A DNA stretch of 34,246 nt from Kipferlia bialata (taxonomy: Eukaryota). The DNA lies in assembly GCA_003568945.1 (NCBI GenBank), contig BDIP01000067.1:1-34246 (forward strand), read 5' to 3'. Position numbers and translations under genes: made by a program. Positions within the stretch are counted from its first letter, which is position 1. Each line of letters starts with the position of its first letter. The notes beneath the pieces are model-generated. The model searched no databases. It saw nothing but the letters and a program-made list of their open reading frames with translations, and had not been told where the DNA came from. Positions 1 through 24,324 of the stretch are shown in pieces.

Positions 1-8
1 GCCCCCAG

Positions 9-409
9 TACTCCACCCTGAGGGTCAAGGTCAACAAGAGTGTGCTGCAGGAGCCATACTCACTCAAGTTGCACTACCACAGGTTCGGTCTCTCTCTCTC
101 TCTTTGCTACCACTTGCTTCCATTCTCTTATAGACCACCCACAGACGTCATCCCTCTCCCCCATACTCTCTCTACATACACACACATACACCTATATACA
201 TGTCTCTCCCTTCCTCTTATTCCGGTACTTCCCCCTTCTCTCTCTATATATCTATATATATGTATATATATCTAATACCAGCTTCCATGCCTCTGACGAC
301 AACAACTCTCTCTCTCTCTCTCTCTCTTCCTCTCTCTCTCTGTCTCTAAATAATATTTACCAATTACTTTATACATATCTCACCCTCAGCTTGGCCAGTC
401 TCTCTCCCA

Positions 410-457
<48 letters not shown>

Positions 458-2400
458 TTATATACATGTATGTATATACATACATCTCATCCTTAGTTTC
501 CATGCCTCTGACGACAACTGGTCTGTCAGGGGATTCCCCCAGCCCCACAACATAGGTACTCTCTCTCTCCTTCTCTCTCTCTCTCTCCCTCTTTGCAAAA
601 GATAATATCTATCTTTCAATCTATATCCTCATGTAACTCACTACAGCCATGCCCCCACCCCACTGCCTCTCTCTCTCCCTGCCCCCTTCTCTCTGTCTCT
701 CCCTATAACCAATATAGCATATAGTAGTGGACGGCGGTGCCTACAACTAGTCTCTCTCTCTCTCTCTTCTATATATACTCTCTCTCTTCTAACTTCAGGT
801 GAACCCACCGCCATCTCCACCGTTGGGGGTGCCTACTACTCTCTCTCTCTCTCTGTCTCCCTCTCTACCCCCTTATATCAGGTGAACCCACCGCCATCTC
901 CACCTATGGGGGTGCCTACTACTCTCCCTCTTCCTCTCTCTCTCTCTCTCTTCCATATGTACTCTCTGTCTTCTAACTTCAGGTGAACCCACGGCCATCT
1001 CCACACATGGGGGTGCCTACCTAGTCAGGCACTGCTGTGACAACCACTGTGACATAGTGGACATGGTGCTGCAGAGTGACTCCCCAGACCAGGTATTAGT
1101 ATTGTATTATGTAAATGTTTCCACAGTATATATTTATGTTATACAATATATATACATAAATACTTTGCATACTATAACTATACATTACTAACCACAGCTC
1201 GCTGTCTGTCTCAAGGACGCCTCTGGCAGAGAGTGGTGGTCCAGCAACGATGGTCAGAACTGGCACATCAACAAGTTCACACAGGTATACTCTCTCTCTC
1301 TCTCTCTCTACGCCCTCAATTCACCCTTAGACTGGCTGGTCTGCTAAGCTCTCTCTCTGTCTCTCTCTCTCTCTCTCTACACCCTTAACTCACCCTGAGA
1401 CTGGCTGGTCTCCCAAGAGAGGCCTCTGCTTCCCCTCCTTCCACCGCAATCAGGCCTCTCTCTCCACACTAGTGGTGTGCAACCACACAGGTATTATAAT
1501 ATACATGTGTATACGTTTATATAGTGATTGACGGAAACGTACATATACACATGTATATTTATCAGAGCAGCCCTCCCTCTCCACACTAGTGGTGTTAAAC
1601 CACACGGGTACTCTCTCTCTCTGTTTCCCAAGAGTACTGCTATTCAGAATGTATACCTCCCTCTCCACTCTTGTAACTATACATACTTACACCTCATCTC
1701 ATCCACAGGTGGCGCTGCTGTGTCTCTACAGTGTACAAGGCACATATGCGTCTTTTACTCTTTTCTATTACGCATTCTATTCCTTCATATACTTACTTAA
1801 CCCTTAGGTGGTGCCTCTGTGTCCCTGGTGTACAAGGCATACACGAATGTACACCATATATCCATAATTCTACTTAAGTAGTGTTTCTGTTATTCCTCAC
1901 CTTATCCTAATCCAGGTGGCGCCTCTGTGTCCCTGGTGTACAAGGCATACAGACCTGGGTGAGTACTGGATATATACTACATACTATATATATTTGTATG
2001 TATACAAGTAGCTGACCCCAGGTCAGAGACCACCCTGACCCACCCCACCCCTGAGTGCCCAGTCCCACAGGGGTGGCACAAGGTATATATTATAGTGTAT
2101 ATATATATATTTGTATATACTACTATATATAATAGTATATACTGATACCTGAGTGCCCAATCCCACAGGGGTGGCACAAGGTATATGCCTCACAAATATA
2201 GTATATATATATATACATATGTATCAGTATCATTGTTACTATATATATATATATACAAGCCTCTGAGTGCCCGGTCCCGCAAGGGTGGCACACGGTATAT
2301 AGAGTCTAATGTACAGTATATTCAGTGGCAAGTATATATCACCGTCCTCTGTTATCTTACCCTTCTCTACCCCCAGGCCGACCTTGTCAAGAGTAACATA

Positions 2401-2444
<44 letters not shown>

Positions 2445-3234
2445 TCTCTCTATTCTACCCCCAGGCCGACCTTGTCAAGAGGGCAGATGGGGTGTACGGA
2501 GGTGGCCTAAGGTATGTCTTATGTCTATTAATGAACAGTAAATTGCTATACGTATGCCAACACGCTATCCCTCATCTATACGTGGAGAAGACATACTAGG
2601 ATGTACTATACGAAGTCGCGTTACTCCCTCACCCCCAAGGTGGAGAAGGGACACTTTGACTGAGCGTGGGGGTGTGACCCTTGCTATGGCCTATGTCATG
2701 AAGGATGAGGAGGTACTTACACTGTATATAGAGACAGAGAGAGAGAGATATATATATATGTAATGAATGCAGTAGGTGGTATAGGATTAGTATAGCGGCA
2801 TGGTGTGACCCTTGCCATGGCCTATGTAATGAAGGACGAGGAGGTATGTAATTATTCGTATACATACACACGTATACATATAGGCATAGATATGTATATA
2901 GATAGATGTAATGGATGCTGTACAATGTATATATACATTTATGGTGTGACCCTTGCCATCCAAGAGAGTGTAATACTTTACAATGAGGTGCGTGTGCATG
3001 GGTCCAAGTGTGTAGTGCTATATGTGTTACCCCTCACCATCATGGCACCCACATCCTGTCCAATGGGAGTTAATGTATACAACCCTACCCTGTATAGTAT
3101 TGTGTATGTATGATATATACACTTCCTCCCTGTAACTCCAGGGCACCCACCTCCTGTCCAACGAGGGCGATCTCTACTGGCCACTCAGCGTGGACACAGA
3201 GGTGTGTAGTCACTGTAGATATAGACATATGTAG

Positions 3235-3268
<34 letters not shown>

Positions 3269-4376
3269 GACCTCTACTGGCCTCTCAGGGTGGACACAGA
3301 GGTATGAATATGATCATACATACATATATATGTGTGCAGTGTATATGTGATCATATAATACCAATGCACATTGTGTTCTCTCACACCAGAGAGGCATCGG
3401 CGGTGAGCTCAGCCAATATGTGTTCTTTACTGTACTGTAGTGTTTCATATACATATTCTATATATATTCATTCTCTATTGACTATATCTCTCACACCAGA
3501 GAGGCACAGGAGGAGAGATCAGGATATATTTGAAATATACCGTTCCCAGTGTTATATATTTGCTGTATCTATACAAGTATACTATTTATACCAACAATAG
3601 ACTTACAATATACTTACACCAGAGAGGCATCGGAGGAGAGATCAGGAACTCATACGGGTTCAGAAAGAGTGGGTTCAGGTGAGCTATTCTCTCCTGATTT
3701 CACACGATCAATCTCTATAACAATCCTTGTTGAGATTGGTATCTCGTGTGACAAGCGGTGTGACATGGAGGTCTATGCCATTCTTTCTCTCTCTCTCTCA
3801 TAGTGTGTATAAATACCTCTAACTCCATTAGGGCCGACGCGCTGTGTGACATGGAGGTCTCTCTCCCCCTCTATACATATATATCCATCGATGTATCTCT
3901 CTCTCTCTATACCATATACTTACCCCAGGGCCGACGAGCTGTGTGACATAGAGGTCTCTTCTCTATGTATATACACGCAATTATAGCAATATATTCATTA
4001 TTTAATATACCTCTTACCCTAGGGCCGACGAGCTGTGCGACATGGAGGTGGAGGGGGAGACTGGCACAGAGAAGGGAGGAGTGCATCAGGTGGACAAGGT
4101 ATATATATATATGTGTGTGTGTGTGTGATATATAGACAGAGGGAGAGGGAGACAGGCACAGAGAAGGGAGGAATGGGTCAGGTGGATAAGGTATATGTAT
4201 ACAATATATATGTTCACGTATATAGAGAGGGAGGGAGTGAGAGAGAGAGTGGCACCGAGAAGCGGATTGGTGCGATAGAGTATTACTTCTATGTAGTATG
4301 GTGTGAGTTACTCAGTGAGTGACTATCTCACTAGCAGGCTCCAGCTGGCAAGGGCATTGCCGCATTTGGATTCTAG
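9..4376 (+). CDS. Multi-exon gene, 5'-truncated by the window; protein with putative starch/glycogen-binding (CBM21/CBM25-like) motifs
   Basis: Exons 9-82, 497-555, 983-1092, 1198-1284, 1400-1490, 1916-1958, 2022-2082, 2465-2511, 2640-2712, 3142-3201, 3623-3678, 4023-4098 and 4338-4376 join through GT-AG introns with consistent phase and end in TAG (4374-4376). Translation includes LKLHYHSFHASDDNW, LAVCLKDASGREWWSSNDGQNWHI and LAMAYVMKDEEGTHLLSNEGDLYW, resembling the FAVCY..G.E.WDNN.G.NY motif of CBM21-type modules. The gene structure is well supported; the function is inferred from motif resemblance only. Confidence 0.75.
797..1020 (+). repeat. Acceptor-echo array (AG|GTGAACCCAC.GCCATCTCCAC) x3
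   Basis: Copies begin at 799 and 882, and the live exon begins at 983. Only the last runs on to a GT donor (1093). Confidence 0.95.
2050..2298 (+). repeat. Donor-echo array (CTGAGTGCCC..TCCC.CA.GGGTGGCACA.G|GTAT) x3
   Basis: The live exon ends at 2082, with copies at about 2148-2184 and 2263-2298 separated by (TA)n. Confidence 0.95.
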
Positions 4377-4907
4377 AGCGACTAGGGCCTCTAGAGAATC
4401 TCAACTAGAGTTTATAGATGAGTCAAGACGTAGGGAAGCTGTTGGCTACGAGAGACTCGTGGTTATGTTGATGGAGACTCCAGTGAGATGGTGACTGTCA
4501 TAGTCTCGTCTAGTTATCAAACAGACACACTTCACAATGAGAATGAAGTCAAATATATTCAGTTGTTCTCATTCAGGTGTTGCATCACTGATGTATTTGT
4601 CGCTCAGTGACTACTTACTGTGTATCACTCAGTAGCTATTGTATGAACGTCTATTGGTATTCCAGGTCCATACTGTAACAGAGAGAACACAAAACTAATG
4701 TGTGCACCTGACTCTAGCAACTAGAGATATCCAACCTGGTAGATAGAGCTAGTAGATCAGATACTGTCGGCCACACAATCCAGATGAGGTGCTGGGGATG
4801 TAGTAAACAATGACCATATTGGACCTAATAGATCAAGTACCCGCAATCATTACTGCGGTGCATGGGTATACACATGGCTAAGTAGACCAATGAGATGAGG
4901 TGCTGAT

Positions 4908-4943
4908 CCGCGAGTTCCGCGAGTTCCACGAGATCCGCGAGTT
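4908..4943. repeat. 9-bp tandem repeat CCGCGAGTT x4
   Basis: ccgcgagtt ccgcgagtt ccacgagat ccgcgagtt, immediately beyond the predicted stop of the SAMHD1-like gene. Confidence 0.9.
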
Positions 4944-4947
4944 AACC

Positions 4948-5085
4948 TCAGATGAGGTGCTGTGTGGGCATGAGCTCCATGTTGTCTAGGATGTCCTGCA
5001 CGGAGTATGCGGTGTTGGGTGTGGACTGGTAGGGTGCAAACGAGGTGCCCCCAATGTACTCATCATCCTGGGAGACATACCCACC

Positions 5086-5116
<31 letters not shown>

Positions 5117-8100
5117 TCTGAGGGTGGGTACTGCTGAGTAGCTGGTGAGTGCGGCACATGGACATCTCTGTCGATACCCTGTGAGTCATAGACCATGTCC
5201 TCTCCAGGTGGCACAGGGGGCCTATCTCTAGATGGTCTAGATGGTCTCTCCTCGTAACAGTCCTCGTCGTCTGATATGATGCAGAAGTTGTCCATCTCGG
5301 TATCAATGCCCATCTCTCTCTCTCCCACTCTCTCTCCACCGTTGGGTGAACGCTCATGCCTCTGTCTCTTGCCTGTTGTTGGTATAAGAATTGAAATATG
5401 TACTATTCACTATATGTATAGTAATAGCTATTAATACTAGTAGGCATATATATATATATATGCATACATACCTGTTGCTGGTATGTATGGGCCGTGCTTG
5501 GCCACGGACAGGGCAGGGAGAGGGTCGTCGAGGCGGGACTGGCGTTAGAGAGAGAGTGACATATGTATATGTATATATATATGTATACATATTTCGTATA
5601 TATGAGTAATACAGGGCAGGGAGAGGGTCGTCGAGGCTGGCCTAGGGTGAGGGGTATTTTATAAGGTAAAGAATACCCTTTAGGCATTATGTACAGATAC
5701 TACATACATAAGCCAAGCTAGATCCAGTATACATATACATGTACTCTATAGTATATATATATATACTCTATACCTGGCTAGCTGCACCGACAGCGTCCTG
5801 TCTGGTGGGTCCCAGCTCTGAGGTGGTCTCGGGGCTGAAGGGCAGGGGGGACTCGGCAATTCCCCTGGTGTGAGTGTGGAGTATATAGTATATGTATATA
5901 TGTATATATATGGAAGGCCTATAGAGTGACTGGAGGGCAGGGGGGACTCGGCAATGCCCCTAGTATATTAGAATACACTAGTATATAGAGAGAGACATAT
6001 ATATGAAATTGTACACAGTATGGGACACATTGTAGATGATGAAGGGCAAGGGGGGACTCGGCAATGCCCCTGGTATGAGTGTAAGTATATATACATATAG
6101 AGACTCTACGTATATATATATATACATGTATAAACAAATGTAATGGGTACCTACTAGATTATTCTCTGGATGATGCGGCAAGAGATGCCATCTCTCTCTC
6201 CCTGACCCTGTCTCATATATATATGTATACGCATGTACATACACATATATACGTATATGTACTACATATATACTACGTGCCTGCTAGAGTATTCCCTTGA
6301 TGCAGCCCGGGATGCGGTCTCTCTCTCCCTTGCCCTCTCTGCCTTAGTAGGGAAGGCAGAGGGTCTAGGGACAGGGTATCTGGGCATTAGAATCAGACAT
6401 ATGTATATTAGTACACACCACATATCAACAATGCCCTGACTTTAGGAAGGCAGAGGGCCTAAGGACAGGGTGTCTTCAGGATGTCAAGAGGCATATCTGC
6501 AATATATTCCAATCCTACCTCTTGCTAGCTGGGTGCACGGGTGACATGGCCATGGTCTCATACATAAATATTATATATACATATATATATATATGCATAT
6601 CCACATATATATACACACTCCACCTCATTATATATATACTGTATATTGATATAGATACCTCTTTGAAGCTGGGTGCACGGGTGACATGGCCATGGTCTCA
6701 CACATAAATGTATACATATAANNNNNNNNNNNNNNNNNNNNNNNNNNNNNNNNNNNNNNNNNNNNNNNNNNNNNNNNNNNNNNNNNNNNNNNNNNNNNNN
6801 NNNNNNNNNNNNNNNNNNNNNNNNNNNNNNNNNNNNNNNNNNNNNNNNNNNNATACCGATCCTACCTCTTGCTAGCTGGGTGCACGGGTGACATGGCCAT
6901 GGTCTCATCCAGGTGGGACACATTGTCATTGTTCATGGCTATGGGTAAAATGTTATATACATATAGGTATATATATATATATATAGTGTGTGTGAGAGAG
7001 AGAGAGAGAAAGGGAGAGAGAGAGAGAGATGGTCTCATCAAGGTGGGACACATTGTCATTGTTCATGACTAAAGGAAAGTGAATATGATGATATATAATT
7101 ATATCTGGTGAGCGAGAGAGCGAGATAGAGTGACAGACAGAGCACAATACTATTCACAGCGAACGATAAGATGAGAGATATTATGTATCTATATATGTGG
7201 GTTATCTCTGATAGCTACAGATGTATCGAATGAGACATCGGTCAGGTAGGGTTCAGTACGTACCGTTGAGCCTTGCTGTGAGCTCGGCGTACTCTTGCTG
7301 GGGTGAGAGCCGTTTGATATATATATATATGTACATATACTCATGAACACATATATCATGTTACTTATTACCTTAGCAGCGTGTCTGATTGCCTCGTGTA
7401 TACAGTTATCCGTAAATACACTGCCAGTATACACATAGATCTCTATCTATACATTCATTACCTTCGCAGCGTGTCTGATTGCCTCGTGTATGCTGTTGTC
7501 TGTGTATATATTGTTTATACTTCTATATCTATACCTACATCAATGCACTAAATACCTTAGCAGCGTGTCTGATTGCCTCGTGTATGCTGTTGTCTGTGAT
7601 GTACACCCTCAGGATGTACGAGGAGTGCGTCACGGGCTTCACGGCCTGGTATCAATGCATATATATGTAGAACTACAATATACATGTGTATTCAATGAAT
7701 GATATATGAATACTATTGTGATGTACGAGGAGTGCGTCACGGCCTGGTATTAGAATCACTGTCACGGAGATATTATTGACAACACTAATTACATGGCCAG
7801 ATCACAAATACATATTGGCAAAATCTATAGACTGTAGAATGAATCATTACCCACCCTAAACCCATCGGAGGTTATGAACTCCAGCTCTATGTCCATTCCG
7901 ACCAGTGGCTTCTTGAAGAATGGGATGGCAGTCATAGGGTCTCCGTCCTTACCCTTGCCACCGTATCCTGATATTGGGGTACATATGTGTGTTAAGCGCA
8001 TATATCATATATCATATACACAATTAATGTATATTAGAACACATTATATATGAATGGGATGGCAGTCATGGGGTCTCCGTCTTTTCCCTTTCCTCCGTAT

Positions 8101-8367
8101 CCTGTGTAAATGATTTACTTCACACTAATAATTATGTCAATGAATACCGGTTCAATTAAAAAATGACCAATACTGTATATATACATATATCAGAATAGAG
8201 TAACAATGGGAATAGAGACAATAGTGAATATGGTACCCATAGTGCTCTTCGACACCCTGACATATAATACATACAAACATGATATTCATATATATTCTGA
8301 ATAGTGAATACATTCATATATATTCTGAATATTGAATACATACATATACATACATACATATACATAC

Positions 8368-8402
<35 letters not shown>

Positions 8403-9970
8403 CACGCCAGTACCTATTGTGCTCTTCTGCACCCTCACCAGCTCTGGGGAGACATTGGCACGGCGGCAGATTCTGGAGAGTTAGTACTATATGTAAACGT
8501 ACATTAGAACTCTATAGTACATATATACAGCTATTCCTAACTCATATGTATACCTGTCATTGAACTGCTTTGTTCCAAAGGTGTCAAACAGGTATAACTA
8601 ATCAGATAGTTGTATATGTGTATACTATTACCCAACTACCCTACATATGTAAATATATAAATATATATATATGTGTGTGTGTGTGTGTATATACCTGTCC
8701 CTGAACTGCTTTGTCTCAAAGATGTCAAACAGGCTGACGTCATTCATCATGTCCTTGGCAAACCTAGGAGTCAACGATAGAGTCAAAGAATCATTAGTGA
8801 ATCAATGTACAAACAATTATGTACCAAATACTGAATCACCTCCTTGGTCAGCCTGATCATCAACACTGTAACATACATATATAGATAATAATAGTTACTA
8901 GGGCCTAATAGTCACTGATACGATGAATACATACCTGATGCCAAATGCCAGCTTGTATGTGTTCCGCGTGTCGACACGCTGCAGGATGGCCTGATGGTAG
9001 GAATACATTTATAGGTATATATACTGAATACATATTGAATATAATTCAGATTAGAACCAATATGTATATACTATATGTTGCAGGATGGCCTGGGGGGTAA
9101 GGGTATATATACACACACGACATAATACAAATTGATAGTGTATATCCACATATGTATACACACATACATATATACATATAGGATATATATATATACATAT
9201 ATATATATGTATACATACATATATATATATATATATATAGGATAGCTGCAGGATGGCCTGGGGTAAGATGCAAACATGATTCATACACAATACACATATA
9301 CTGTACACATGCAGAACTTATATACCTTAGCCTCGTCAATCTTTTTATTCTCTAATTTTCTATTTTGGGTTGTGTGTCTAGGTACACTTTTACTACAGTA
9401 CAGCAGTCCATATATACATTGCATCTGAGACGTATATCTCCAGATATATATACCTTAGCCTCGTCCATCTTTGGGTTCTGTGTCAGGCCATTGCCTCCAA
9501 ACCCACCGGCTGGGTACATCCTGATGGCTGGGGGTGAGGAGATACATACATATCCATCATATATATGAGAGAGAGTGCGTGAGAGAGAGAGAGATAGGGA
9601 GACACAGACGCCAGCTGGATATATGCTGATGGCTGGGGGTGAGATGTATAAATATATACATATATATGAAGAGAGAGAGAGACAGAAAGCAAAAGAAGTG
9701 ATATTCACAACACGTACTGTCCAGGATGCCGTCGTTGAGCTTGAGGAACAGGTCCAGGTCATGGCAGGAGTCAGTCAGGCGGAAGGTGTCTGGGATTAGA
9801 GGTCAAATATGGAAATGGACCATGTTCAATAATATATAGGAATACAAGAACAATCAATTATACATATACTATATGCATACTCACCCGATGCCTGCACGAG
9901 GGCGTCTGTCACCATCAGCTCCACAGCAGAGGAGGTCTTGTGGGAGTACACACGGCTGAAGAGACTAGAC

Positions 9971-10017
<47 letters not shown>

Positions 10018-10805
10018 CTTGTGGGAGTAGTAGGCTATTGAATAGTGGAGACACGTGAGGTTGAGAAGGAGATGTCACCTGTATCTGCAGCCGAATATCT
10101 CGTTGATGGCATGTTGGGTCTTGACCTGGAAGGCCCACTTGTCACCAACGAACCTGGGTGATTAGAGACATGTCACACGCAATTCAAACAATGCCACATA
10201 CATGCAAACACATAATGACTATTGGTATACATAGTCACAGACAATTGGCGCCATACCTGCTGGCCTGTAGTATGTATGCCGTGTCTGGCCTCTGCATACT
10301 GGGGCCTACATTGACAGAGTCTCTGGGGGTAAGGTATACAATAGTATACATACAAATATATACACTACCATTGACAGAGTCCCTGGGGGTGAGGGGTGTA
10401 TTAGTGAATACATATACATATGTTTATTTCGCTATTAGTCTCAATGCTGGGGCCAGAGTCTCTGAGGGTTATGAATACTATAGTGTATCAAGTCCAGTAG
10501 AATCTTCAACACTTCTATATGTATATATAGATCTATATCTCATACCTCTCCAGATAGTCGAGCTTGTCCACGTCCAGCCCGCACTGACTGTTGGACACAA
10601 TGTCATAGAGCCAGCCTCTTTCACCGGTCTAGAAGTCAGGGAGATTTAATCGAAGATATATACCCTATATATGCATATATAGTATATATATGTGTGTGTA
10701 TATATACATATAGTATATATAACTGACTGTTGGACACAATGTCATAGAGCCAGCCCCTCTCACCGGTCTAAGGGTCAGAGAGACACCACTTGATATATAT
10801 CTATG

Positions 10806-10840
<35 letters not shown>

Positions 10841-11697
10841 TATATATGGTGTTCTGACTGTTGGACACAATGTCATAGAGCCAGCCCCTCTCGCCGGTCT
10901 AAAGTAAGTACAGGGTAACTTGTATGTATATGTATATGTATGATTGTATATGTGATATATAGTGTTCTGACTGTTGGACACAATGTCATAGAGCCAGCCC
11001 CTCTCGCCAGTCTGAAATTAGTATGATATATATAGTATATATAGTATTCTGACTGTTGGACACAATGTCTAAAGTCAGGCAGTATCTATAAGAGAGAAAG
11101 GGTGTACCATATACACATGTATGTATACTTTTTATACCTTGCGCCCCTCTTTGCAGTCACAGATGGCAGTATATATATATATATATATATACTATATAAT
11201 AGCTTTGTGCGTGTGAGTGTATGTATACCCTACCTTGCGCCCCTCTATGCAGTCACAGATTGCACCGGAATTGCATTTGTAATAAAATATTTATACTGGT
11301 ATATATATACATACATAGATTATACCATGTAACAATACCTTGCGCCCCTCTATGCAGTCACAGATGGCAGTGACCTCACAGTCCTCGAGGTCTAGGGTGA
11401 GATTCATATATAGAAGGTGTATATTGATTAGATAGAGAGGAGTTAGACATCAATAAGTAGGATATTACGAAGGTATATACTCTTATAATAGATAGAGAGA
11501 GAGAGAGGGGACCTCACAGTCCTCAAGGTCTAGGGTGAGGGGTATATGAATTAGAATCATCCATGCTTATAGGTAGGAAAGTGTGAATACGCACCATCAT
11601 TCTCCTGTGCTATTCTGTGCACCAGTTCCACAGACATGGCCTCGTGCTCCTTCCTGATGCCCATGGCACGCAGGAACCTGGAATAAGGGGGTAGAGG

Positions 11698-11742
<45 letters not shown>

Positions 11743-13939
11743 GAGAGATGCCCATGGCCCTCAGGAACCTAAGGATTAGACCATACGGAATATATATGAA
11801 TTAGAATAAGAATGAGGGGTAGGAAGAGAAATCTATAAGTGTGACACTTCTGATGCCCATGGCTCTCAGGAACCTAAGAGTGAGGAGGTAGGGAGAGAGA
11901 GAGAGAGAGGGAGATAGAGAGAGAAAGAGTGTATAATACAGAATATATACTCACCCACTGTCCCATGCGTGACTGAATGGTCCGTGGCCCAGGTCATGGC
12001 ACAGGGCAGCAAGGGTGACTAGAGTAAGGTTAATACTAACAAAAATACTTGGGTATATATAGACAGAGATGGGGGGGGGGGTACTAGGTCATGGCAGAGA
12101 GCAGCAAGGGCGACTGTTATTAGTATCACATATATAATACATGAACACACACACACATATATATATACATGTTAGTGTATATATATAGTTCAGGTCACAG
12201 GGCAGCAAGGGTGACTGTAATTAGAGAGTAGATGTATATTCATATACATATATTCATATACATATATACATATACAGAGAGAGAGAGAGAAGGATATATG
12301 GGTAGAGGTAGAGGGCAGCAAGGGTGACTGGGGTGAGAATAATACTACTTAGGGGTTCCCAGAGTGTACGAAAGTATTTTCATATACCTATCTTCCTCTC
12401 TCTGTGTGTGAGCCTCAGGCCTGGCTGGGATGCACTGACCTTGGACAGGAGCTGGCCTAGAGTAAAATATATATACATACATGTCTATATTAACCTAGTT
12501 CTATATGTTCTCATACCTGCCAGGTGCATGGTGCCCAGACTGTGTCACATATATAGTACAATCTATAAACAATATGATATATACATATATATACAGCATA
12601 TCTACACAATACCTGCCAGGTGCATGGTGCCCAGACTGTGTCAAATATGTCATAATATACACTAAATACACACAACACTGACTTCCAACATATGATATTC
12701 ATATATAAAGATAATATATATATATATTATTACACTATATTTTATTAAACTATATTATATATCTGTACAGTACCTGCCAGGTGCATGGTGCCCAGACTGT
12801 GCTCAAACCTGGCAATTAGAGGGTGAACACATGGAGAGAGCTGTATACTAAGCAATGTACAAAAGTGCATGGTGTGGTCATTAAGAATTTGTGTGTAGTG
12901 TCTTAATACCTATCCACCATACCTAGTGTGTGTGGCCCCTGGGTACACGTAGTGAGCAGTCCCCAGCTGTCTAAGACCCCTGGAGTAAATAGTAGTATTA
13001 TACACAGACATATATACATATATAGATATATATGTATTCATGTATATATAGAGAGACAGTACCAAGCTGCCTCAGTCTCAGACCCTTGGAGTAAATAATT
13101 ATTGTTGTATACATACATACAGTAAGTATATATATGGTCAATATACACAATACTGAACCATATACCTCAGCCTCTGCACTGCCTGTGTGTTGAGCACATC
13201 CACTGCATAGCCTGGGACCTCGATGACCTAGAGTAAAAGGGGTATATATATTACCTAATATATATATATATATATATATACTATATACACTAAACATAGG
13301 TATAGACATCCACTGCATAGCCTGGGACCGATCAATGACCTGGCAGTGAGGGAGGGAAATGATTGACACCAAATATAATACATATTATAGATACCTTGTG
13401 GATGGGGTCTGTGATGGACACATCGAAGTACACCTTATATGTATATATATATATGTGTATATATATATATTCATTTATTCATTCTATACTGATTCTGATA
13501 TCATTGTGGTATCCATACATACTACTATAGCTAATATATATACCTTGTGGATGGGGTCTGTGATGGACACGTCGAAGTTGTACGCACAGTGGTACCTGGG
13601 GTAAGGGTCATGTTGAGAGAGAGAGAGGGAGAGAAATAGAGAGACAACATATATAGAAACATAGGAGAACGGGGGGGGGGGTAAACACTAGATATACGTC
13701 AGATAGGGAGTACGAGAGTATGATGGTGGGAGCCATAGTACCGAGGGATGAGATAGAGAGAATGGGGGACGAATGGGAGCGGGGGGGGGGGGAGGGCACA
13801 TATGAATCCTTAAGCAGAATAATACCGGTATATGGTATATTGACTGAGGCACCCTAAAGATAGAGACAGTGATAGAGAGAGAGAGAGATCTACACCTGCT
13901 CGACAGGCTGTCTCCTGCTATATCGGCCTCTCCTGGCAT
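4948..13939 (-). CDS. SAMHD1: SAMHD1-like HD-domain dNTP triphosphohydrolase (no SAM domain; low-complexity C-terminal tail), about 25 exons
   Basis: Spliced translation starts [15 protein letters not shown] (13939-13896), then [17 protein letters not shown] (13595-13544), [51 protein letters not shown] (12808-12774), [15 protein letters not shown] (12018-11955), [32 protein letters not shown] (10628-10546 onward), [20 protein letters not shown] and [13 protein letters not shown]. These match the SAMHD1 signatures [39 protein letters not shown] and VYQHK. The exact 3' end is less certain. Confidence 0.93.
6722..6852. other. Assembly gap (131 N)
   Basis: Run of N inside an echo array in an intron of the SAMHD1-like gene. 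Confidence 0.99.
10584..11070 (-). repeat. Acceptor-echo array of the [15 protein letters not shown] exon x5
   Basis: Plus-strand ctgactgttggacacaatgtc occurs at 10584 (live exon), 10723, 10854, 10967 and 11049 (internally deleted). Confidence 0.97.
12515..12808 (-). repeat. Donor-echo array of the [11 protein letters not shown] exon x3
   Basis: acctgccaggtgcatggtgcccagactgtg occurs at about 12515, 12611 and 12772 (live). Confidence 0.95.
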
Positions 13940-14296
13940 CTCTGATCAAGCTCAGTCAAGGCTAGTCAAGCACAGTTAATATAGAACGATGTAGGTGGCC
14001 AGTATACTCGCAGGGGTAGGTGCAACTGCGATACAGAGAGAATGCGGATTGAATATGGCGGCAGATACGTTCAGCGTTTCGTTGGATTGTTTTTGAGTTA
14101 TTAGATAGGGGTTGACCTCGAGGTCATCAGCTGTCGTGACATCGTCTCTCTCTCTCGTGACATGCTCTTGTCATAGAAAGGACAGTATACCTCCATCATA
14201 TGTCACGTCCCCATATGTCACACATCAGCTGACCATTCATGACCGTGTTCGTCTCTCCACCTATAGGGGAAGAGAGGGTGTGAGTGTATACTACCC
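13940..14296. promoter_or_regulatory. Putative compact bidirectional promoter region
   Basis: 357 nt between head-to-head ATGs (13939 minus, 14297 plus), with little microsatellite sequence compared with the flanking introns. Positional inference only. Confidence 0.5.
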
Positions 14297-15042
14297 ATGC
14301 CATCCCAGGCCGATATAGCCATTGAGGCAGAGAGAGAGGGAGAGACCCAGGCTGATATAGCCATTGAGGCAGAGAGAGAGGGTGAGAGAGAGGTTGTCCT
14401 CAACGCATGTGGGTCAGAGACAGGGAGTGTGTGTGCCTCTGAGGTGCCGGAGATCCCAGCCTCTCCACTGCATGAGAGTGTAGCAGTTGCGGAGTCAGAG
14501 AGAGAGGGAGAGAGAGAGTCTCTGTCTATGGAGGATGGGATTGAGACTGAGGTGGTTGACCTTGTTGACACTGAGACAGAGGGAGAGGGAGAGACAGAGG
14601 TGGCTGATCTCGTGGTACCTGACAATGAGGCAGATACAGAGGTCAATGAGCACGACCTGCCAGTGAACACAGGTATTCTATCTCCCTCTGTCTCTCTCTG
14701 ACCCTCCCCCCCCCTTCCATTGTGCCACTGGTCTCCCCATTCTATCCCAAGTACTCTCTCTTCCCCTATAGATCTATCTTCCTCTCGCGTACTGCTTGAT
14801 ACATACGTGGCCTACATCTCATATGTGTGATAATATATATGCTTATGCCAGAACCAGAGGCAGGTGTGCATGAGACAACCGGGGCAGAGAGGGAGGGAGA
14901 GGGAGAGGGAGATGAAGAGACAGAGAGAGAGGGAGAGGGAGAGAGAGATCATGCAGAGAGGGAGGGAGAGGGAGAGATAGAGAGAGAGGTGGAGGCAGAG
15001 GCAGAGGAGGATACCGTCCCTGAAGCTGACTGCACAGGTACT

Positions 15043-15081
<39 letters not shown>

Positions 15082-15842
15082 CCCCCATATTTACAATTTC
15101 ACATTTTTTCCCTCCTTCCCCTACTTTGCCTCTAGTCCTGTCATGGTCTCGCTCCAACTCTCTCTCTCTCTCTCTCCATCTCATCTCAGCACGTGCCCTA
15201 TCTGTCGAACCCCCCCCCCTCTCCCTCCCTCTCTCTCTCTCTCTCTCTCTGTCTGTCTCTCATCACAGCCCGTGCCCTATCTGTCGACCCAGTCACCTCC
15301 ACTGCTGAGACTCAGCCAGAGGTATACATGCATACATACGCATATAAATATATCTATATATATCTATGTACGGGTGTATATACAGATTTTTCCTCCCCCC
15401 CCCTCCCCCTCTCCCTCTATCTCTCGTTCTAACCTACAGGGAGTCCCAATGCCCTCTAGCCATGTAGTGACTGAGGTTGCATCCCCAACTGAGAGTGTCA
15501 AGGTATCTAGTATAGCTCTACATCTCTCTATACTCTCATATTTATTGTGTAGATCAAGTCTTAACCCAAGTCTGTGTACGAGAGTGAGTGGGAGGGCTGA
15601 GTATGTTCCCTCCTATATGTGCGTTTATATCGATTTGTATATTTCTAATCCTCAGTCTGTGTACGAGAGTGAGTGGGAGGGCTGGGACACAGAGAGACTG
15701 GCACTGGCAGCAGCGGAGAAGGAGGTAGACATGTATATTTTTATACATAGATATACATATATATATGTATAGAGAGAGAGAGAGAGAGAGACTGGCACTG
15801 GCAGCACCGGAGAAGGAGGTAGATCTATATATAGAGAGAGAG

Positions 15843-15878
<36 letters not shown>

Positions 15879-17026
15879 GGAGACTGGCACCGGCAGCAGC
15901 AGAGAAGGAGGTATATATATACACACACACACACACAATTAGTAAATATATATATATATCTCTCTCTCTTGTTCTCTTCCTATGCACACTTCTTATCCCA
16001 AGGTTGCTACTGCACTGGAGAGAGAGACTCTCCTCATTGCCAAGGTAAGAGGTGTCTGTATACAGTATGTATCGTCTGAAAAGATATGTAATTTACTCTG
16101 TTGTAGTACACTCTCACGTTAGGTTGAGTCCCTGGAGTCTCTCTGCCAGCAGGTAGAGGTGGAGAGAGAGACTGAGAGAGCTCAGTGGGAGACAGAGAAG
16201 GGAGAGTTGGAGAGGGAGAGAGAGACTCTGACAGAGAAGATCAAGTGGGAGGGAATAGGTATAGCGCACACTCCTATATATATATATGTATATGCTTCAT
16301 ATATAGTCTTCTCTCCCTTCTCACTCCAATGGGTGACAGTACCCGCTCATATTTGGAGTATTTATATATATACTAGTAGGTATCTCTCACCCCCAGCCCA
16401 CCAGGCCATTGAGAGTACTATCTCTCTCTCCCTATTATGTTCAAGTATAAATACATATTGAAATGTATCTCACCCTCAGCCCACCAGGCCATTGAGAGAC
16501 AGTACGACTCCACATATTCTGCACTCACCGAGGTCAGGGAGCAGGTAAGCTATACATACTGTATATACACAAAACACTAAACAGGTGGTATTGTATGTAT
16601 ATCTGTATATCAATCGATGTATATATATGGGAGGCAGAGAGGGCAGCAACTGTCAAATATTTCTATACATATATACAATATGTGAAATTGCTGCATCTTA
16701 CCTTAGCTCGAGACCGAGAGGGCTGCTTGGGAGGCCGAGAGAGCATCAGCAGCTGAGAGGGAGGCTGAGAGGGTGAGGGAGAGAGAGAGGGAGAGAGAGG
16801 CCGAGCACATGGAGGTGGCAGACCTACTCGCCATCAAGGAGCAGGTATATAGTTTATGTATACATATATGTACACAATATATACACTGTATATAAATATG
16901 ACTATTGTATATACAAATGTACTACTTATACTATATTGGATATGGAGGTGGCTGACCTACTCGCCATCAAGGAGCAGGTACACTACTCACTTATATACAT
17001 ATATACATATATACATATATACATAT

Positions 17027-17065
<39 letters not shown>

Positions 17066-17167
17066 TACACATATATAGTATATAGTATCACATGGAGGTG
17101 GCTGACCTACTGACCATCAAGGAGCAGGTACATTCCACACACGTACATATACATGATACGTATGTAA

Positions 17168-17200
<33 letters not shown>

Positions 17201-18119
17201 AATACATATGTAGGATGTTTCGTGTAAGTTGGAGGTGGCCATCAATGAGCAGGTATAGTGTTTGTATATATACTATATATACAAAATATATACACTATAT
17301 ATTAGTATATGACTAGTGTATGTACAAATGTACTGATTATACTATATTGGATATGGATGTGGCTGACATACTAACCACCAAGGAGTAGGTACACTTCACA
17401 ATAGTATATGTCTATGCTCATATTCAACTAATAGTAGGTCCTATATGTATACACTTGTATTTCTCTTAATGTCAGGTCCAGGCCACCCTATACCAGGCCG
17501 AGTCCGACAGGGCAGTCTCTCTCTCTCTCTATATATATATACGTATATATACAGACATATACAGACATATAGATACAGACACTAATTGTTAGGTACAGGC
17601 CACCCTTGATCAGGCTGAGTCAGAAGGGGCAGGGTATCTAGATCTATCTCTCCCTCGCTCTCTCTCTCTCTATCTATATAGATATAGACATAGTATGTAC
17701 TAATAGCAGGTCCAGGCCACCCTAGACGAGGCCGAGTCTGTCTCTTCCTATCTCTCTCTCTCTATATATATAAGTTCTATTGTCTGTGGTTTGCCTTACA
17801 ATAGGTCCAGGCCACCCTCTCCCGGGCTAACTTTGACACGGCAGTCTCTCTCTCTCTCTCTCTCCCTATGTCTCTACATACATTTATATATATCTAACTA
17901 CATACACTAATACTAGGTCCAGGCCACCCTCGACCAGGCTGAGTCCGACAGGGCAGAGTCTCTCTCTCTCTCTCTCTCCCCCTATATATAGGAGTTCTAT
18001 TGTATATAGTATGCCTTATCATAGGTCCAGGCCACCCTTGATCAGGCCGAGTCCGACAGGGCAGAGTGGGCACAGACAGAGGCAGCACTGAGATGTCAGG
18101 TATGTATATGTATATATAG

Positions 18120-18167
<48 letters not shown>

Positions 18168-21100
18168 TGAGAGGGAGAGAGAGAGTCCGACAGGGTAGAG
18201 TGGGCACAGACAGAGGCAGCACTGAGATGCCAGGTATATATAGTGTATATATATATGTATATATATAGAGAGAGAGAGAGAGATTGACAGGGCAGAGTGG
18301 GCACATCCTACATAATTTATCATATATTTCTTTCATTTCCAGCACGATTGTGTGTTCCATCTTGGTTACAAAGAGTGTACTTACACCTAACGTCAGGTTG
18401 TGGAGCTTGTGAGGAAGAGAATGATACATCAGGTGTATGTTTCATTATAATATATACAATCTCTTATTGTCAGGTTGTGGAGCTTGTGAGGAAGAGGGCC
18501 CAGGAGAGAGAGAGAGAGGAGAAGAGGAGGGGGAGAGAGAGAGAGGAGTGGGACATCCAGACTGCCATACTGCAGACACAGGTATGTATATAGTGTGCCG
18601 TGTATATATATACAAATACATATACATACGGTATAAGAGATGCACTTGTCTGTATCTTGCTACAATAGTATATGATGTCTTCTGACCTCAGGTGACAGGA
18701 CTCCAGGGAGAGAGAGAGGGCAGGGAGGGAGAGAGAGCAGCCCTGACCCAGAGTGTGCAGGAGGGTACGACACTGACTAATATGTGTTTGTAACCACTCA
18801 TACTCATATCAATGTATATTGCCTTCATCATATTTATCATACACCTCTACTTTCATTCCAGGCCACGTAGAGAGGACCAGAATATATAAGATTATAATAT
18901 CATGTATGTATTACAGTATGTGCCTATTGTAAATTTATATGTGTAATCTGATACCAGGCCTGGTAGAGAGGGCCAGCCTTGTGGCTGAGATGGAGCAGGA
19001 GAGTGAGGCCCATGCTCTTGCACTAAAGGGTGCAGAGGGAGAGAGAGAGGCTCTCAACTCCGTCCTAGTAGAGGAGAGAGAGAGGTGGGAGAGAGAGGAG
19101 AGAGAGAGAGTGGAGCAGATTGCAAGACTCAAGAGAGTGCTAGAGGTGGAGAGAGAGGAGAGAGGGGGTGAGAGAGAGAGACTGGAGAAGGCACTGAGGA
19201 CAGAGAGACTCTCAAGGGAGGTGGAGAGAGTAGAGACGGAGGCGGAGAGAGAGAGGGAGAGGCTGGGTTACCAGCAGGAGAGAGAGGCTCTCTTCTTGGA
19301 GATGGAGAGAGAGACAACCCAGTGGGAGAGGGAGAGAGAGGAGACTGCTGCCAAGGCCAGAGAGGCAGAGAAGGTAAGGAATTTTAGTGGATGTATAACC
19401 ATATATTAGTCACATACATTTACACGTGCATTACACATACATTGGTCACAGAATGGAGGCAGTACAAGTGTACAGTTTGATATGAGGTATATATACCATA
19501 TGGTGAGGCTATCTATTCTTGCGAGTTATACATTATCCTCCTAATGTCCAGATGCACTCTCAGCAGGTCCAGACCCTGGAGACAGAGCTGAAGGAGGTAG
19601 GGCTAATTGTATATGAACAATGTTGTAGTAATACACTATTATCTAAGGACTCATCCTAGGCCAAGGAGGCCCTTACTACCCTAGAGACCCAGATGCTCTC
19701 TTTCAGTAATTATATATATAGTATTACAATATCTTATGTCTCACGTTAGATCAAGGATGCCCTTACTGCTCTAGAGACACAGAGGGAGAGAGAGAGACAG
19801 GAGGCGAGGGAGAAGGCAGAGCAGAGAGAGAGGGCTGAGGAGGAGAGACTGGAGAACCTGAGGTATCTTATTTAGAATACATAGAGTATATAGTGTTTGG
19901 TGTCTATGTACAGGCTGTTATGTATATATATCCAGTACAAACTAGTATAGTATTGCATGCTATGTAAATGTGTTGGGTTATAACCGTACCTATAGGTCCA
20001 GACTCTCTTCCTGGAGACAGAGTCCACAGTGCTTATATAAATATTTTCATATCCATTTATATATGTAATTCATATACAATAAGATATATCTTAGAGTAAC
20101 TCCAGGTCCAGACTCTCTTCCTGGAGGCAGAGCCCACAGGAGGAGAGAGCCACCCTGGCATGTCTGAAGGAGGTATTCTTTTATGTATTGGTGCTCATAT
20201 ACACACATATGTATGTATTAGGTGTCTTACGAAGATGTGTGGATATTGAGACACGTTTCTGTTTGGAGATCATACTACTATTACAAGATGAAATAGTATT
20301 AGTACTCCAACTGACACCAGGAGATTGACGCAGAGGCACTGGATGATGTATTCATGTGTATGTATCTTGTCATATAGTATACATCATATAGTATATAGTA
20401 TACAGCTGCACAACTCTCTCTTATAGTAGGAGATTGATGCAGATATCGTGGATGACATCGCACCCTCTGCAGCGTCTCTCAGAGAGGAGTGTATCCTACT
20501 ATGATATGTTACTATAAGTCTATATATTATCTCACACCAGGAGATTGATGCAGAGGCAGTGAGTGATATTGAGCCTCCCACTGCAGCCTCTCTCAGAGAG
20601 GACCTCTTCTTCTCAGCATTCGAGGTATGCTCTATACTTCTCTCTCTCTGTCTTTTCTCATGTTCAGCTGTTCTTCTCAGCATTCGAGGTATGCTCTCTC
20701 TACTTCTCTCCCTCTCCTTCTCTCCTAAACTTCACTCAGAGAGGAGCCGTTCTTCTCAGCATTCGAGGTATACTCTCTCCTTCTCTCTCTGTTTTGCTCC
20801 TTATCTTCCGCGATGCATGGGAATTCGTCGCGAGCGATTAATACATTTCTCTATACTACTCTTCTCTACACTTCAAATCCATTTGCATGTGCTATCGCTA
20901 ACCTGCCTCTCGATATCTCTCTCTTCTCACACCCCTACAGTTTGTGATTGACCCTCAGGAGGAGACTGGACCCCTGCAGGCACAGCTGGCCAGTGTGGTG
21001 AGTTACAGTATGCATATATGTAATATTGTTTGCAGTATATGTATACATATACTACTGAGACATCAGCCTCACCTTCAGGAACTCGTTGGTTACTTATACT

Positions 21101-22714
21101 CTCCCTTAATTGTCTCTATCTATATATATATTTATGCTTATATTCTGCCTCATCTCCAGGTTGCTTGTGTTATACATTGAATAGTGTTTGTTTACATAAG
21201 TGTGTTATATCCTATATGTCACACTCACCTCCAGGTTGCTGAGTGCACCAGGGTCACTGAGTCCCTGGCATCTCTCAACACACAGTCACAGGTATAGTAT
21301 AGGATATATATATATATAGTATATAGTATAGGTATATATATATACTACTTATTATAGATGCATGTATACTCACAGTCACAGGTTGGTAGAGTTAGTGTCA
21401 ATGTGTATTTTATATACATATGTATGTATAAATACTCAACACACAGTCATATGTGGAGTATATACTTGTATTACTATACATACACTATATTACTACACAT
21501 AGTAATTTACTTAGCAATTACTGGGTGTATATTGTATATGTTAGGAGTTACCTCCTCTGACCCCAGGATGAGAAGACTGATATGTATGTGTGTATTTGTG
21601 GTATAATGGGCACTCACTAGGCTGAGAAGGAAGAGTGGAAGAGAGTTCACTATATGTGTATAAGTATACATATGTATACTGATATCCCAGGCTGAGAAGG
21701 AGGAGTGGGAGAGAGAAAGGGCAGTGCGTGAGAAGCGGCTAGCACAGCTAGAGGCAGAGAGGGAGAGGGAGAAGAGAGAGAGAGAGGCCAAGGAAGAGAA
21801 GAAGGCTCAAAGACCCACTCCAACAGACTATGCCAGGGTGGGTTGATATATATATAGTATATGTAGTATATATATATATATACTCATATACAAAGAGAGA
21901 GAGAGAGAGACCCACTGCCACAGACTATGCCAGGGTGGGTTGATATATATATAATATATGTAGTATCTATATTAATATATATACATACATAGAGATAGAG
22001 AGAGCCACTCACACAGACTATGCCAGGTTGGGTATATAGTGATATACACATGTATATGTATATATATTAATAGCAATATCTAGTCACTCATGTATACCCA
22101 CCTGACCCCCAGGCCGAGCAGGACAGGCATATGCATATATCTATACCTATATATATATATAGCCTTCTTGTATAATACCTATATATATATATACATATAC
22201 CTCAATATACATCTGACCCCCAGGCCGAGCAGGACAGACAGTCACGGGCCAGGGAGGAGTGGGCTCAGAAGGTGTGTAGTAGTACAAATATACATTAGTT
22301 TGTATATTAATACTTATGTATATTCATTCTAACTTTGAGGCCGCTGCTCTGAAGACAGTCAGGGATGATGTGAGTTGTGGTATATATTGTGTATTAATGT
22401 ATATTTATATAAATATTCGCTTATTCCAGGCCGCTGCCCTTAAGACAGCCATGGGGTATAATACTGTATATATGTATATAATACTGTATATACTATATAC
22501 TATATACTTATTCCCTAACCTCCAGGCCGCTGCCCTTAAGACAGCCCGGGAGGAGAGAGAGAGACTGGCAAGGGAGGAGGCAGAGCGTGTGGAGAGGGAG
22601 AGAGAGAGGAGAGACGCTGCTGAGAGAGAGAGACTGGAGAGAGAGAGCATCCCAACTAGTGGGAGTGGTGGAAGGGTGAAGGATCTCATTAGGAACTTCT
22701 CTCAGAGTGAGTAG
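14297..22714 (+). CDS. Large multi-exon Glu/Arg-rich (ERE) coiled-coil hypothetical protein
   Basis: An acidic N-terminal exon (MPSQADIAIEAEREGET...) is followed by many GT-AG exons with heptad-like E/R-rich translation, e.g. 16707-16844, 18025-18099 and about 18958-19372 (LVERASLVAEMEQESEAHALALKGAEGEREALNSVL...). The last exon ends GRVKDLIRNFSQSE-TAG at 22714. The start codon and some internal exon choices are uncertain. Confidence 0.8.
16809..17390 (+). repeat. Donor-echo array (ATGGAGGTGGC.GACCTACT..CCATCAAGGAGCAG|GTA) x5
   Basis: The live copy ends at 16844, with echoes at 16942, 17092, about 17230 (deleted form) and about 17352 (most diverged). Confidence 0.95.
17474..18099 (+). repeat. 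Acceptor-echo array (AG|GT.CAGGCCACCCT) x6
   Basis: Copies start at 17476, 17593, 17710, 17805, 17917 and 18025 (live exon 18025-18099). The period is about 95-117 nt. Confidence 0.97.
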
Positions 22715-22964: not shown

Positions 22965-23170
22965 ATGGAAGAACAAATCTTTCTTCATATCCGTCCTTGT
23001 ATCTCCTCCGGAAGCTACACTGACCAATACGCCACCCCATGTCCCCCATATGCCCATGTGTGTGTACCTTGTACAGACACAATGGGGCAGGCAGTCTCCC
23101 TGACGATACGGCTGGCAAGGTACACACATAAGACATGTATCACCCCCCCCCCCCCCCCCTCCCTCTCCCC

Positions 23171-23203
<33 letters not shown>

Positions 23204-23613
23204 ATGTTAGGTCCGGGATGCCCTGAGACAGGAGGGCAGGGTCAGAGAGCTCATCTCCCTTGGGTACTCAGGTATGCAGTGTGGTATGCAGTGTGGTATG
23301 CAGTGTAGCATAGCTGTTGTTGTCTGCCTCCCATCGTGCCCCTGTCTCACCCCCAGACGCCGAGGCCCGTCGCATGTCCAGCCAGCAGCAGACCCAGCAG
23401 GGACCAGGGTCAGTCAGGGAGACCACGGGGGAGCGCATACAGCGCAGGATAGGTATAGATGCGGCACTCCACTCTGTCTGTCTGCCCTCTTCCTATACAT
23501 CTCCACTCCTATCCATATCTACCCCTCCTCTCTGAGCCTCACCCCCAGCCACCGTCGACTCTGAGATTCAGTCCAGGGGGTCCAGCCGGAAGGGAAACGC
23601 ACTCCCATGGTAG
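22965..23613 (+). CDS. Small multi-exon hypothetical protein
   Basis: GT-AG exons at about 23077-23119, 23211-23271, 23357-23452 and 23549-23613 join in frame as HNGAGSLPDDTAGKVRDALRQEGRVRELISLGYSDAEARRMSSQQQ...SSRKGNALPW*. VRELISLGYSDAEARR resembles the first helices of UBA-like modules. The 5' end is unresolved; ATG 22965 is only a candidate. Confidence 0.55.
23143..23201. repeat. Intronic poly-C tract
   Basis: About 59 nt of nearly pure C between a GT donor (23120) and an AG acceptor (23209-23210). Confidence 0.95.
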
Positions 23614-23907
23614 AGGGGAACGGTAGTAGTTGCACTGGAGGGTCACTTGTACTGGCTCCCAGGGCCACTCATGACAAGACATTGGGTGCCGGAGACGGCC
23701 CACAATGCATTGCTTGAGTAATTGTAAATATCGGATAAATACATCTAGTTATACTAGGAACTATGTGAGTTAGGTGCATGAGAGTCTGGGATGCCCACTG
23801 CTCAGTTCATCCTGTCATTGTTGAACCTTTTTTGTTGAATTTTGAGAGAGTCACTCTGAGTGTCATTGCTGAGTGTGCATTCTTGTATAGATCTATCTAG
23901 CTCTGAG

Positions 23908-24275: not shown

Positions 24276-24324
<49 letters not shown>

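Follow-up and report, generated by a model that had tools for sequence, protein, structure and literature searches.

How introns come to be filled with partial copies of the exons that they separate, and how splicing finds the correct sites among those copies, are the questions raised by a stretch of DNA from Kipferlia bialata, 34,246 nucleotides of contig BDIP01000067.1 (positions 1 to 34,246, forward strand), which we refer to as the window. The window is intron-rich eukaryotic DNA, and three genes were modelled within 1-22.7 kb, each with one open frame: gene 1 (1..4376, +), gene 2 (4948..13939, -) and gene 3 (14297..22714, +). A preliminary description of the sequence had claimed that most exons of these genes are accompanied, in the adjacent introns, by truncated copies that retain one splice site, here called echoes. 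We show that the echoes are present in the DNA, that the transcript contigs checked omit every echo they cross, and that the echoes differ from their exons chiefly at silent sites, so that they look as if they had once been constrained both for coding and for splicing.

Each of the 61 modelled exons was aligned to its adjacent introns (58 in all), and matches with a score of at least 24 were retained, a level that chance reaches in 0.53% of 2270 non-adjacent exon/intron pairs. This search detected 87 echoes: 48 upstream echoes carrying the 5' part of the exon, 29 downstream echoes carrying its 3' part, nine internal fragments and one near-full copy. All 26 positions listed in the preliminary description coincide with a detected echo of the kind given there, and the polarity it had reported is followed by all 77 end-anchored echoes, with none reversed. 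Echoes involve 42 of the 61 exons and 41 of the 58 introns, with a maximum of nine copies in one intron; they are 13-59 nt long (median 28), the median copy corresponding to 36% of its exon. The AG and GT letters of end-anchored echoes are unchanged in 152 of 154 cases. The median period is 104 nt from AG to AG and 115 nt from GT to GT, with periods of 69-113 nt given by Tandem Repeats Finder (TRF), and 23 head-to-tail arrays of two to five copies adjoin the real exon. Intron length increases by about 103 nt per echo (rho 0.86), and downstream-type echoes precede upstream-type ones in all 13 introns that contain both kinds. The spacers between echoes are AT-rich and intron-like, with branch/AG or GT ends of their own; their earlier characterization as microsatellite filler was overstated, as dinucleotide runs are present but account for 15% of the intron letters in the left region.

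Arrays of this kind are easily suspected of being assembly errors, and we compared positions 1-6500 with public sequence, namely, the contigs of two runs from one sample, a DNA run (X1) and a run taken as RNA from its GT..AG joints (X2). Thirteen echoes lie within X1 contig pieces, several of them together with their exon, with no differences; X1 may be the source run of the window itself, so that it represents a separate assembly rather than a separate sample. The X1 depth over the echo-containing pieces is 393-441, compared with 421.5 in an echo-free piece, as expected of a single locus. In the five pieces checked, no exact internal repeat exceeds 23 nt, and 12 of the 13 echoes lie in a piece whose longest such repeat measures 19-23 nt, which is too short to mis-join a 31-mer assembly.

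In the RNA run, the letters between the aligned pieces of contig 8 equal the exon model of gene 1 exactly (53/53, 5/5 and 417/417), and this exact count implies that all 20 gene 1 echoes are absent from the transcript contig. Contig 9 skips the four gene 2 echoes that it crosses, bringing the skipped echoes to 24 of 24; as an indirect indication, its length leaves 81 letters for a 5' untranslated region (UTR), compared with 970 letters of echo upstream. The direct RNA joints cover gene 1 and the last four exons of gene 2, bins without coverage were given no weight, and contigs show the main form only, such that rare isoforms or degraded mis-spliced RNA would escape. The echo architecture is almost certainly real, and the echoes are very probably skipped in the main mRNA. 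The two ordinary accounts named in the preliminary description, mis-assembled haplotypes and constitutive exons, both fail over 1-6500, where X1 contigs cross the arrays at single-locus depth and every echo crossed is skipped, so that neither account applies to the echoes of this segment.

The differences between echoes and exons are distributed as in coding sequence. Mismatches were found at 70 of 1666 0-fold sites (4.2%) and at 69 of 416 four-fold sites (16.6%), that is, a 0-fold divergence (d0) of 0.043 and a four-fold divergence (d4) of 0.187, with a ratio of 0.23. The bootstrap interval over 55 arrays is 0.16-0.33, with none of the 1000 resamples at 0.5 or above, and the interval with one echo per array is 0.16-0.41. 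A ratio of 0.5 is expected of a neutrally decaying copy of an echo's own exon when that exon changes only silently; simulated own-exon copies subjected to neutral decay and the same detector gave means of 0.49-0.55, the lowest value in 240 runs being 0.31. The silent excess persists under base stratification (0.26), after removal of CpG, after trimming of ragged ends and in each gene separately, and is gone in the two wrong frames; a small low-complexity tail of gene 2 does not show it (9/175 vs 4/49). Base composition, CpG, ragged ends and detection bias were thus ruled out as its cause by stratification, trimming and simulation, and AT-biased decay was likewise rejected. Four-fold sites show no directional bias in GC (23 vs 24). 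Between echoes, the ratio is 0.27, and neutral echo-to-echo copying is rejected (P 0.001). Conservation declines from the AG and GT letters (99%) through non-degenerate sites (96%) and four-fold sites (83%) to the flanks (about 50-65%), which, as judged from sequence, is the profile of homologous working exons and not of junk copies. The copies thus depart from the decay expected of neutral duplicates, a point that the preliminary description had missed, and duplication on one chromosome does not by itself account for them.

The reading that we favour, to which we assign about an even chance, is that the half-exons come from other working alleles, through out-of-register exchange between homologues. 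The first duplication would have one end in the intron and the other in the exon, and would leave a half-exon with a single splice site; copies with both sites would enter the mRNA and be purged. Tandem duplication across splice junctions, as proposed in the preliminary description, is supported by our results, and the consistent polarity calls for no special mechanism: it follows geometrically and automatically from junction duplication with one exon kept whole. The half-exon echo could then pair with the working exon on the homologue, and unequal crossover or gene conversion would add or rewrite units about one intron long, with the ragged end inherited. Birth on the same chromosome followed by allelic recombination of echo and exon would leave an equal signature and is counted in this reading. 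The resulting copies would be expected to resemble diverged alleles, and this is the pattern found: few amino-acid changes and many silent ones, intact AG and GT, and strong but different flanks. Of 26 pairs of adjacent echoes, 15 have ragged ends that agree to within 3 nt, compared with 20% expected (P 2e-5), and such sharing by neighbours suggests that arrays grow from a founder. A fit that includes an allelic silent divergence (additive term 0.082) has a log-likelihood (lnL) of -188.8, compared with -196.8 without it. For the amphioxus arrays discussed below, unequal crossing-over and haplotype length differences have been reported or proposed (PMC3087553). Two other breakpoint models were tried and rejected: anchoring in microsatellites, with ragged ends beside dinucleotide runs in 19 of 77 cases vs 19.5% (P 0.16), and units that copy a whole intron from its start, a description that fits 3 of 48 only.

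A number of results weigh against this reading. A fourfold faster silent rate fits equally well (lnL -188.9 vs -188.8). There is no decay gradient toward the ragged end (0.044 vs 0.042), as would be expected of crossover chimeras; the d0/d4 ratio is not higher in distal echoes (0.21 for the nearest vs 0.26 for the farthest, and 0.25 for rank 1 vs 0.21 for rank 2 or more); and the trend for distal echoes to be older is weak (11:5, P 0.11). The confidence interval (CI) of the echo-to-echo ratio, 0.16-0.60, includes 0.5. The intron flanks are far more diverged than the four-fold sites, which would require a high rate of slippage. No second allele was found in X1 over 1-6500 (no other letters, 93% likeness), and searches with single exons gave no related locus or protein in which the echo variants could be tested. 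Should the echoes nevertheless be captured alleles, one genome would record a silent diversity near 0.08, and also homologue exchange, for a lineage in which population data are scarce.

One alternative is plain tandem duplication on the same chromosome followed by neutral decay, combined with unusually rapid silent change of the working exons, such as might result from selection to differ from the decoys. A multiplicative model with a factor of 3.9 fits as well as the allelic one, and the changes common to all echoes of an array comprise 10 synonymous and 3 non-synonymous ones, as this account would have it. Nevertheless, this would require a rate of change at exon silent sites about three times that of unconstrained echo DNA, given that equal rates lead to a ratio of about 0.5, which is rejected; the strong but different splice flanks of each echo are left unexplained, and the lack of directional bias at four-fold sites noted above also speaks against it. 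We consider this account unlikely. We think it similarly improbable that the echoes are selected in place, either as templates swapped into the working exon or through use in rare or regulated isoforms. Conservation of amino acids and of AG and GT lasts into the distal echoes, whereas the spacers that follow a shared ragged end show no relationship (3 of 16 in the top 5%); there are multi-letter synonymous swaps (CGT to AGA and AGG; AGC to TCA); and two of the 154 splice letters have changed, whereas change at the 0-fold rate would have affected 6.5 (P 0.04). Set against this, the main transcript contigs skip all echoes crossed, the ragged end of a half-exon offers no splice partner in general, single-letter changes include four stop codons vs 2.4 expected, the amino-acid changes are just marginally conservative (P 0.09), and clonal two-way conversion would, by reasoning, still yield a ratio near 0.5. 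On this account, for which our expectation is correspondingly low, the introns of the domain would be a living library of half-exons, that is, silent cassettes under selection for coding and splice sites that are exchanged into the working exon, and housekeeping genes would evolve via an intronic store of alleles ignored by a strict exon-definition spliceosome.

Insertions templated by diverged paralogues, by a hybrid parent or by reverse-transcribed pre-mRNA during break repair would likewise give coding-constrained copies with foreign splice flanks, and break repair is a recognised route of intron gain in the accessible text of a study of that process (PMC3443670). Such an origin appears distinctly unlikely: no diverged second copy was found over 1-6500, the ratios are similar in all three unrelated genes, shared ragged ends favour serial expansion over independent insertions, dinucleotide runs do not adjoin ragged ends more often than expected, and RNA templates from the same allele would leave the ratio unlowered. 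The concatenation of haplotypes or strains during assembly could also produce a silent excess, 9 of the 87 echoes have a perfect run of at least 31 nt in common with the exon, an assembly gap lies in an intron of gene 2, and X1 may be the source run of the window. This is, however, very improbable in view of the separately assembled X1 contigs, which cross exon and echoes without a difference, at single-locus depth and with no internal repeat longer than 23 nt, and of the RNA contigs, which match the full exon only.

Whatever their origin, the echoes confront splicing with decoys of the strength of real sites, as the preliminary description had held. The median position-weight scores of echo and true sites are 8.4 vs 8.9 for acceptors and 9.7 vs 9.5 for donors, far above other intronic AG (-4.5) and GT (-1.1), and in 25 of 48 cases, the score of an echo acceptor equals or exceeds that of its own true site. 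A branch-like motif precedes 42 of 48 echo acceptors and 49 of 58 true ones. The strength is kept though the flanks differ: the letter at acceptor position -3 is that of the own true site in 27 of 48 echoes, identity to the own true site over positions -12 to -3 is about 0.52, compared with 0.38-0.42 for unrelated introns, and the flank is in the top 5% of likeness to the own true site for 11 of 48 and 8 of 30 echoes. If a true donor were joined to the acceptor of the first echo, the intron would often be of normal size, and yet the far acceptor is used. The region of the three genes is a natural experiment in splice-site choice, with dozens of decoy acceptors and donors of real-site strength.

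The simplest rule, and a likely one, is exon definition, in which the spliceosome would match the two sites at the ends of a short complete exon, such that only the AG and GT flanking a whole exon would be used. For short-intron protists, intron definition is the usual assumption, and the use of the outermost pair here points to exon definition instead. Reed and Maniatis are said to have seen the outermost site used in engineered duplicated splice sites in 1986. The outermost splice site is also used in human junction-spanning minisatellites, according to the accessible text of a report on them (PMC1557585). In K. bialata, discrimination of echoes would run on a reduced spliceosome, for which the accessible text of its description gives 87 of 174 proteins and no snRNA (small nuclear RNA) candidates (PMC6679479). 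Against exon definition, partner splice sites beside echoes are not significantly depleted (7 of 48 vs 9.5; 3 of 30 vs 4.7), which leaves the rule without direct support, and contigs drop rare isoforms, while mis-spliced RNA may be degraded. Recursive splicing, an earlier suggestion, was rejected, as exons that start with GT number 7 of 32 with upstream echoes and 10 of 26 without.

The pattern is regional. The preliminary description had regarded it as region-wide, which holds for 41 of the 58 introns of the three genes but ends at about 22.5 kb: no echoes were found in the 43 predicted introns of the three genes predicted at 23.0-33.6 kb (23039..33620; Fisher P 1e-14), models that come from our own predictor. 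Self-comparison independent of gene models agrees: on the left, 71 direct matches have their two copies no more than 500 nt apart, and on the right, none starts beyond 22.9 kb. Introns on the right have a median length of 87 nt, compared with 238 nt on the left, and a GC content of 49.5%, compared with 37.4%. The boundary at about 22750-23000 is sharp, with intron GC rising from 37% to 49.5%, introns becoming shorter and echoes disappearing, and exon GC being similar on both sides. Introns have thus grown in steps of about 100 nt inside a sharply bounded domain, which ties intron length to local recombination or mutation. The echo-free domain contains, at 23908-26330 (+) and 27267-33620 (-), a predicted gene that we presume, from a motif, to be kelch-like and a predicted leucine-rich-repeat gene (weak Pfam match to LRR_4, E 0.033).

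The architecture had been thought undescribed, but its geometry has precedents in amphioxus and human genes. The original paper on the amphioxus arrays, known as mirages, is reportedly that of Canestro et al. in 2002. Comparisons with published systems refer to the accessible text of the papers cited. Mirages are known from Adh3, the globins BflGb6 and BflGb9, TnC and PGBD5 (PMC3087553, PMC3902484). Like the echoes, they arise by tandem duplication of the 3' end of an intron with the 5' part of an exon, or of an exon's 3' boundary; many units, about 100-160 bp long, keep AG or GT, splicing is normal, and copy number varies between haplotypes (PMC3087553, PMC3902484). The echoes share the junction-spanning unit, the head-to-tail arrays and the cryptic AG and GT with a normal mRNA (skipping of 24 echoes), whereas high identity of whole units is seen in a few young arrays only. 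Reports of mirages concern individual genes, and describe whole units that are 81-100% identical (BflGb6) and evolve in concert. By contrast, the window has echoes throughout three adjacent genes (41 of 58 introns), with both polarities sharing introns; its units combine a largely scrambled intronic part with a coding-constrained exonic part (d0/d4 0.23), its host is unicellular, and the pattern halts at a compositional boundary.

Human minisatellites that span splice junctions are known from F7 IVS7 and CBS IVS13 (IVS, intervening sequence), 6-16, LMNB2 and PDGF (PMC1557585). They differ from the echoes in being isolated loci, on the donor side, with near-identical repeats, and the F7 units include four exon bases only; the scanning rule derived from them covers donors and not the choice of the last among several branch/AG acceptors that is seen in the window. 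Tandem exon duplication with mutually exclusive splicing also places exon-like, possibly coding-constrained copies in adjacent introns (PMC9013439). Mutually exclusive exons are whole, with both splice sites, whereas 86 of the 87 copies in the window are partial and the near-full one lacks its AG; this class was rejected for the echoes, as the median copy is 36% of the exon and none is included in the contigs checked.

The Rogers model of intron gain resembles our case in that an intragenic tandem duplication copies splice-like signals (PMC3443670), but it creates a new intron inside an exon, whereas the duplications in the window lengthen existing introns and keep the outermost original sites. 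As a candidate source of the introns, it was rejected, as an exon-end/intron-end match of at least 8 nt occurs in 1 of 101 introns. Intron gain by tandem genomic duplication is reportedly the subject of Gao and Lynch 2009. The sole matching case is gene 2 intron 25, the last 13 letters of which (5373-5385, -) copy the end of the upstream exon (5472-5484) with one mismatch; its acceptor is possibly of Rogers type or echo-derived, to judge from these letters. Mobile introns of the introner type were also rejected, since long-range or inverted self-matches within the window are short and weak only. Our searches of the literature accessible to us, without subscription papers and supplements, revealed no mirage-like arrays in a protist, at such density or with an analysis of synonymous sites; supplementary alignments of mirages (PMC3087553) may be relevant to the claim of coding constraint. 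New here are the high regional density and the coding signature, the junction-spanning geometry being already known.

Gene 1 is 5'-truncated, with a 293-codon open frame over 13 exons on the plus strand (1-82, 497-555, 983-1092, 1198-1284, 1400-1490, 1916-1958, 2022-2082, 2465-2511, 2640-2712, 3142-3201, 3623-3678, 4023-4098 and 4338-4376), and six of its GT..AG joints are present in RNA contig 8 (run X2). Upstream echoes of exon 2 (282-303) and exon 3 (799-836, 882-919) are skipped in this contig, the 53 letters between pieces being those of exon 497-555. At 1331..1843, exon 5 is echoed upstream (1331) and downstream (1581) and exon 6 upstream (1709, 1808), with an RNA joint 1487>1913 (GT..AG) and a DNA contig piece (1388-1842) without differences. 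The downstream echoes of exon 7 (2148, 2260) and the upstream echo of exon 8 (2377), within 2148..2393, are excluded from the mRNA by the count of 417/417. Between 2802 and 3063, covered by the DNA piece 2455-3220, lie downstream echoes of exon 9 (2802, with three synonymous and no non-synonymous changes, and a degraded one at 2943) and an upstream echo of exon 10 that has lost its AG (3044). The region 3269..4190 carries echoes of exons 10 (3269), 11 (3390, 3500) and 12 (3750, 3832, 3929; downstream, 4142), with RNA joints 3199>3621 and 3676>4021 and a DNA piece at 3274-4093 (no differences, depth 425). RNA contig 8 continues unspliced beyond the stop of gene 1 into the last exon of the convergent gene 2 (4336-5071), which indicates either overlapping 3' ends or a merged contig.

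Gene 2, on the minus strand, has 26 exons that form an open spliced frame of 714 amino acids, the last four exons being joined in RNA contig 9 (X2). We presume its product, from motifs, to be an HD-domain dNTPase (deoxynucleoside triphosphohydrolase) of the SAMHD1 type. Echoes of exons 25 (5611-5641), 24 (5930-5959, 6040-6069) and 23 (6151-6172), within 5611..6172, are skipped in contig 9. Intron 23 (6280-5865, -) is of the GC-AG type and is joined in contig 9, with the downstream echo at 6151-6172, which has a canonical GT, skipped. The assembly gap of N letters (6722-6852) sits in intron 22. Exons 11-23 are echoed at 6445..10382 (-), for example, by a 50-nt copy (8052-8101) with five synonymous and no non-synonymous differences. 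In intron 9 (710 nt; echoes at 10722..11264, -), exon 9 is echoed twice downstream and exon 10 four times upstream; of these four, three end at one exon position (within 1 nt), with synonymous differences only. Echoes of exons 2, 3, 5, 7, 8 and 9 occupy 11510..13429 (-), including the near-full copy of exon 5 without AG (12613-12645).

Gene 3, on the plus strand, comprises 22 exons encoding 868 amino acids and is modelled from its frame and splice signals only; the Glu/Arg-rich product is probably a coiled coil. Its echoes are found at 15190..16648 (exons 3, 5, 8 and 9; for exon 5, one upstream and two downstream), in intron 9 (1180 nt; 16942..17958), where four downstream echoes of exon 9 are followed by five upstream echoes of exon 10, and at 18185..22450 (exons 10, 11, 15, 16, 17, 19, 20, 21 and 22). 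Genes 2 and 3 are divergent, and their N-termini (13896-13939, -, and 14297-14387, +) are alike by eye. At the start of gene 3, which is uncertain, there is an in-frame tandem repeat of 42 bp, possibly an echo in its own right.

Searches with single exons, rather than whole spliced proteins, as queries yielded no related locus or protein; the metagenome loci among them comprised 597 pattern matches, none confirmed, and eight exons compared with Pfam gave sub-threshold matches only, such as the LRR_4 match above. The K. bialata genome is 51 Mb, with 124,912 GU-AG introns, and is diploid by k-mer peaks, according to the accessible text of its description (PMC5874029). For annotation, echoes will mislead gene predictors and can pass for collapsed haplotypes. 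In gene 2 intron 16, a 26-nt segment flanked by AG and GT (8840-8865, -) resembles by eye the spliced exon 16/17 junction and is out of frame as an exon; it could be a relic of an intron-less state or a chance likeness. At 18397-18432, an upstream echo of gene 3 exon 11 is followed 36 nt further on by a strong donor (score 10.5), which makes this 36-nt segment a candidate for an in-frame micro-exon of echo origin.

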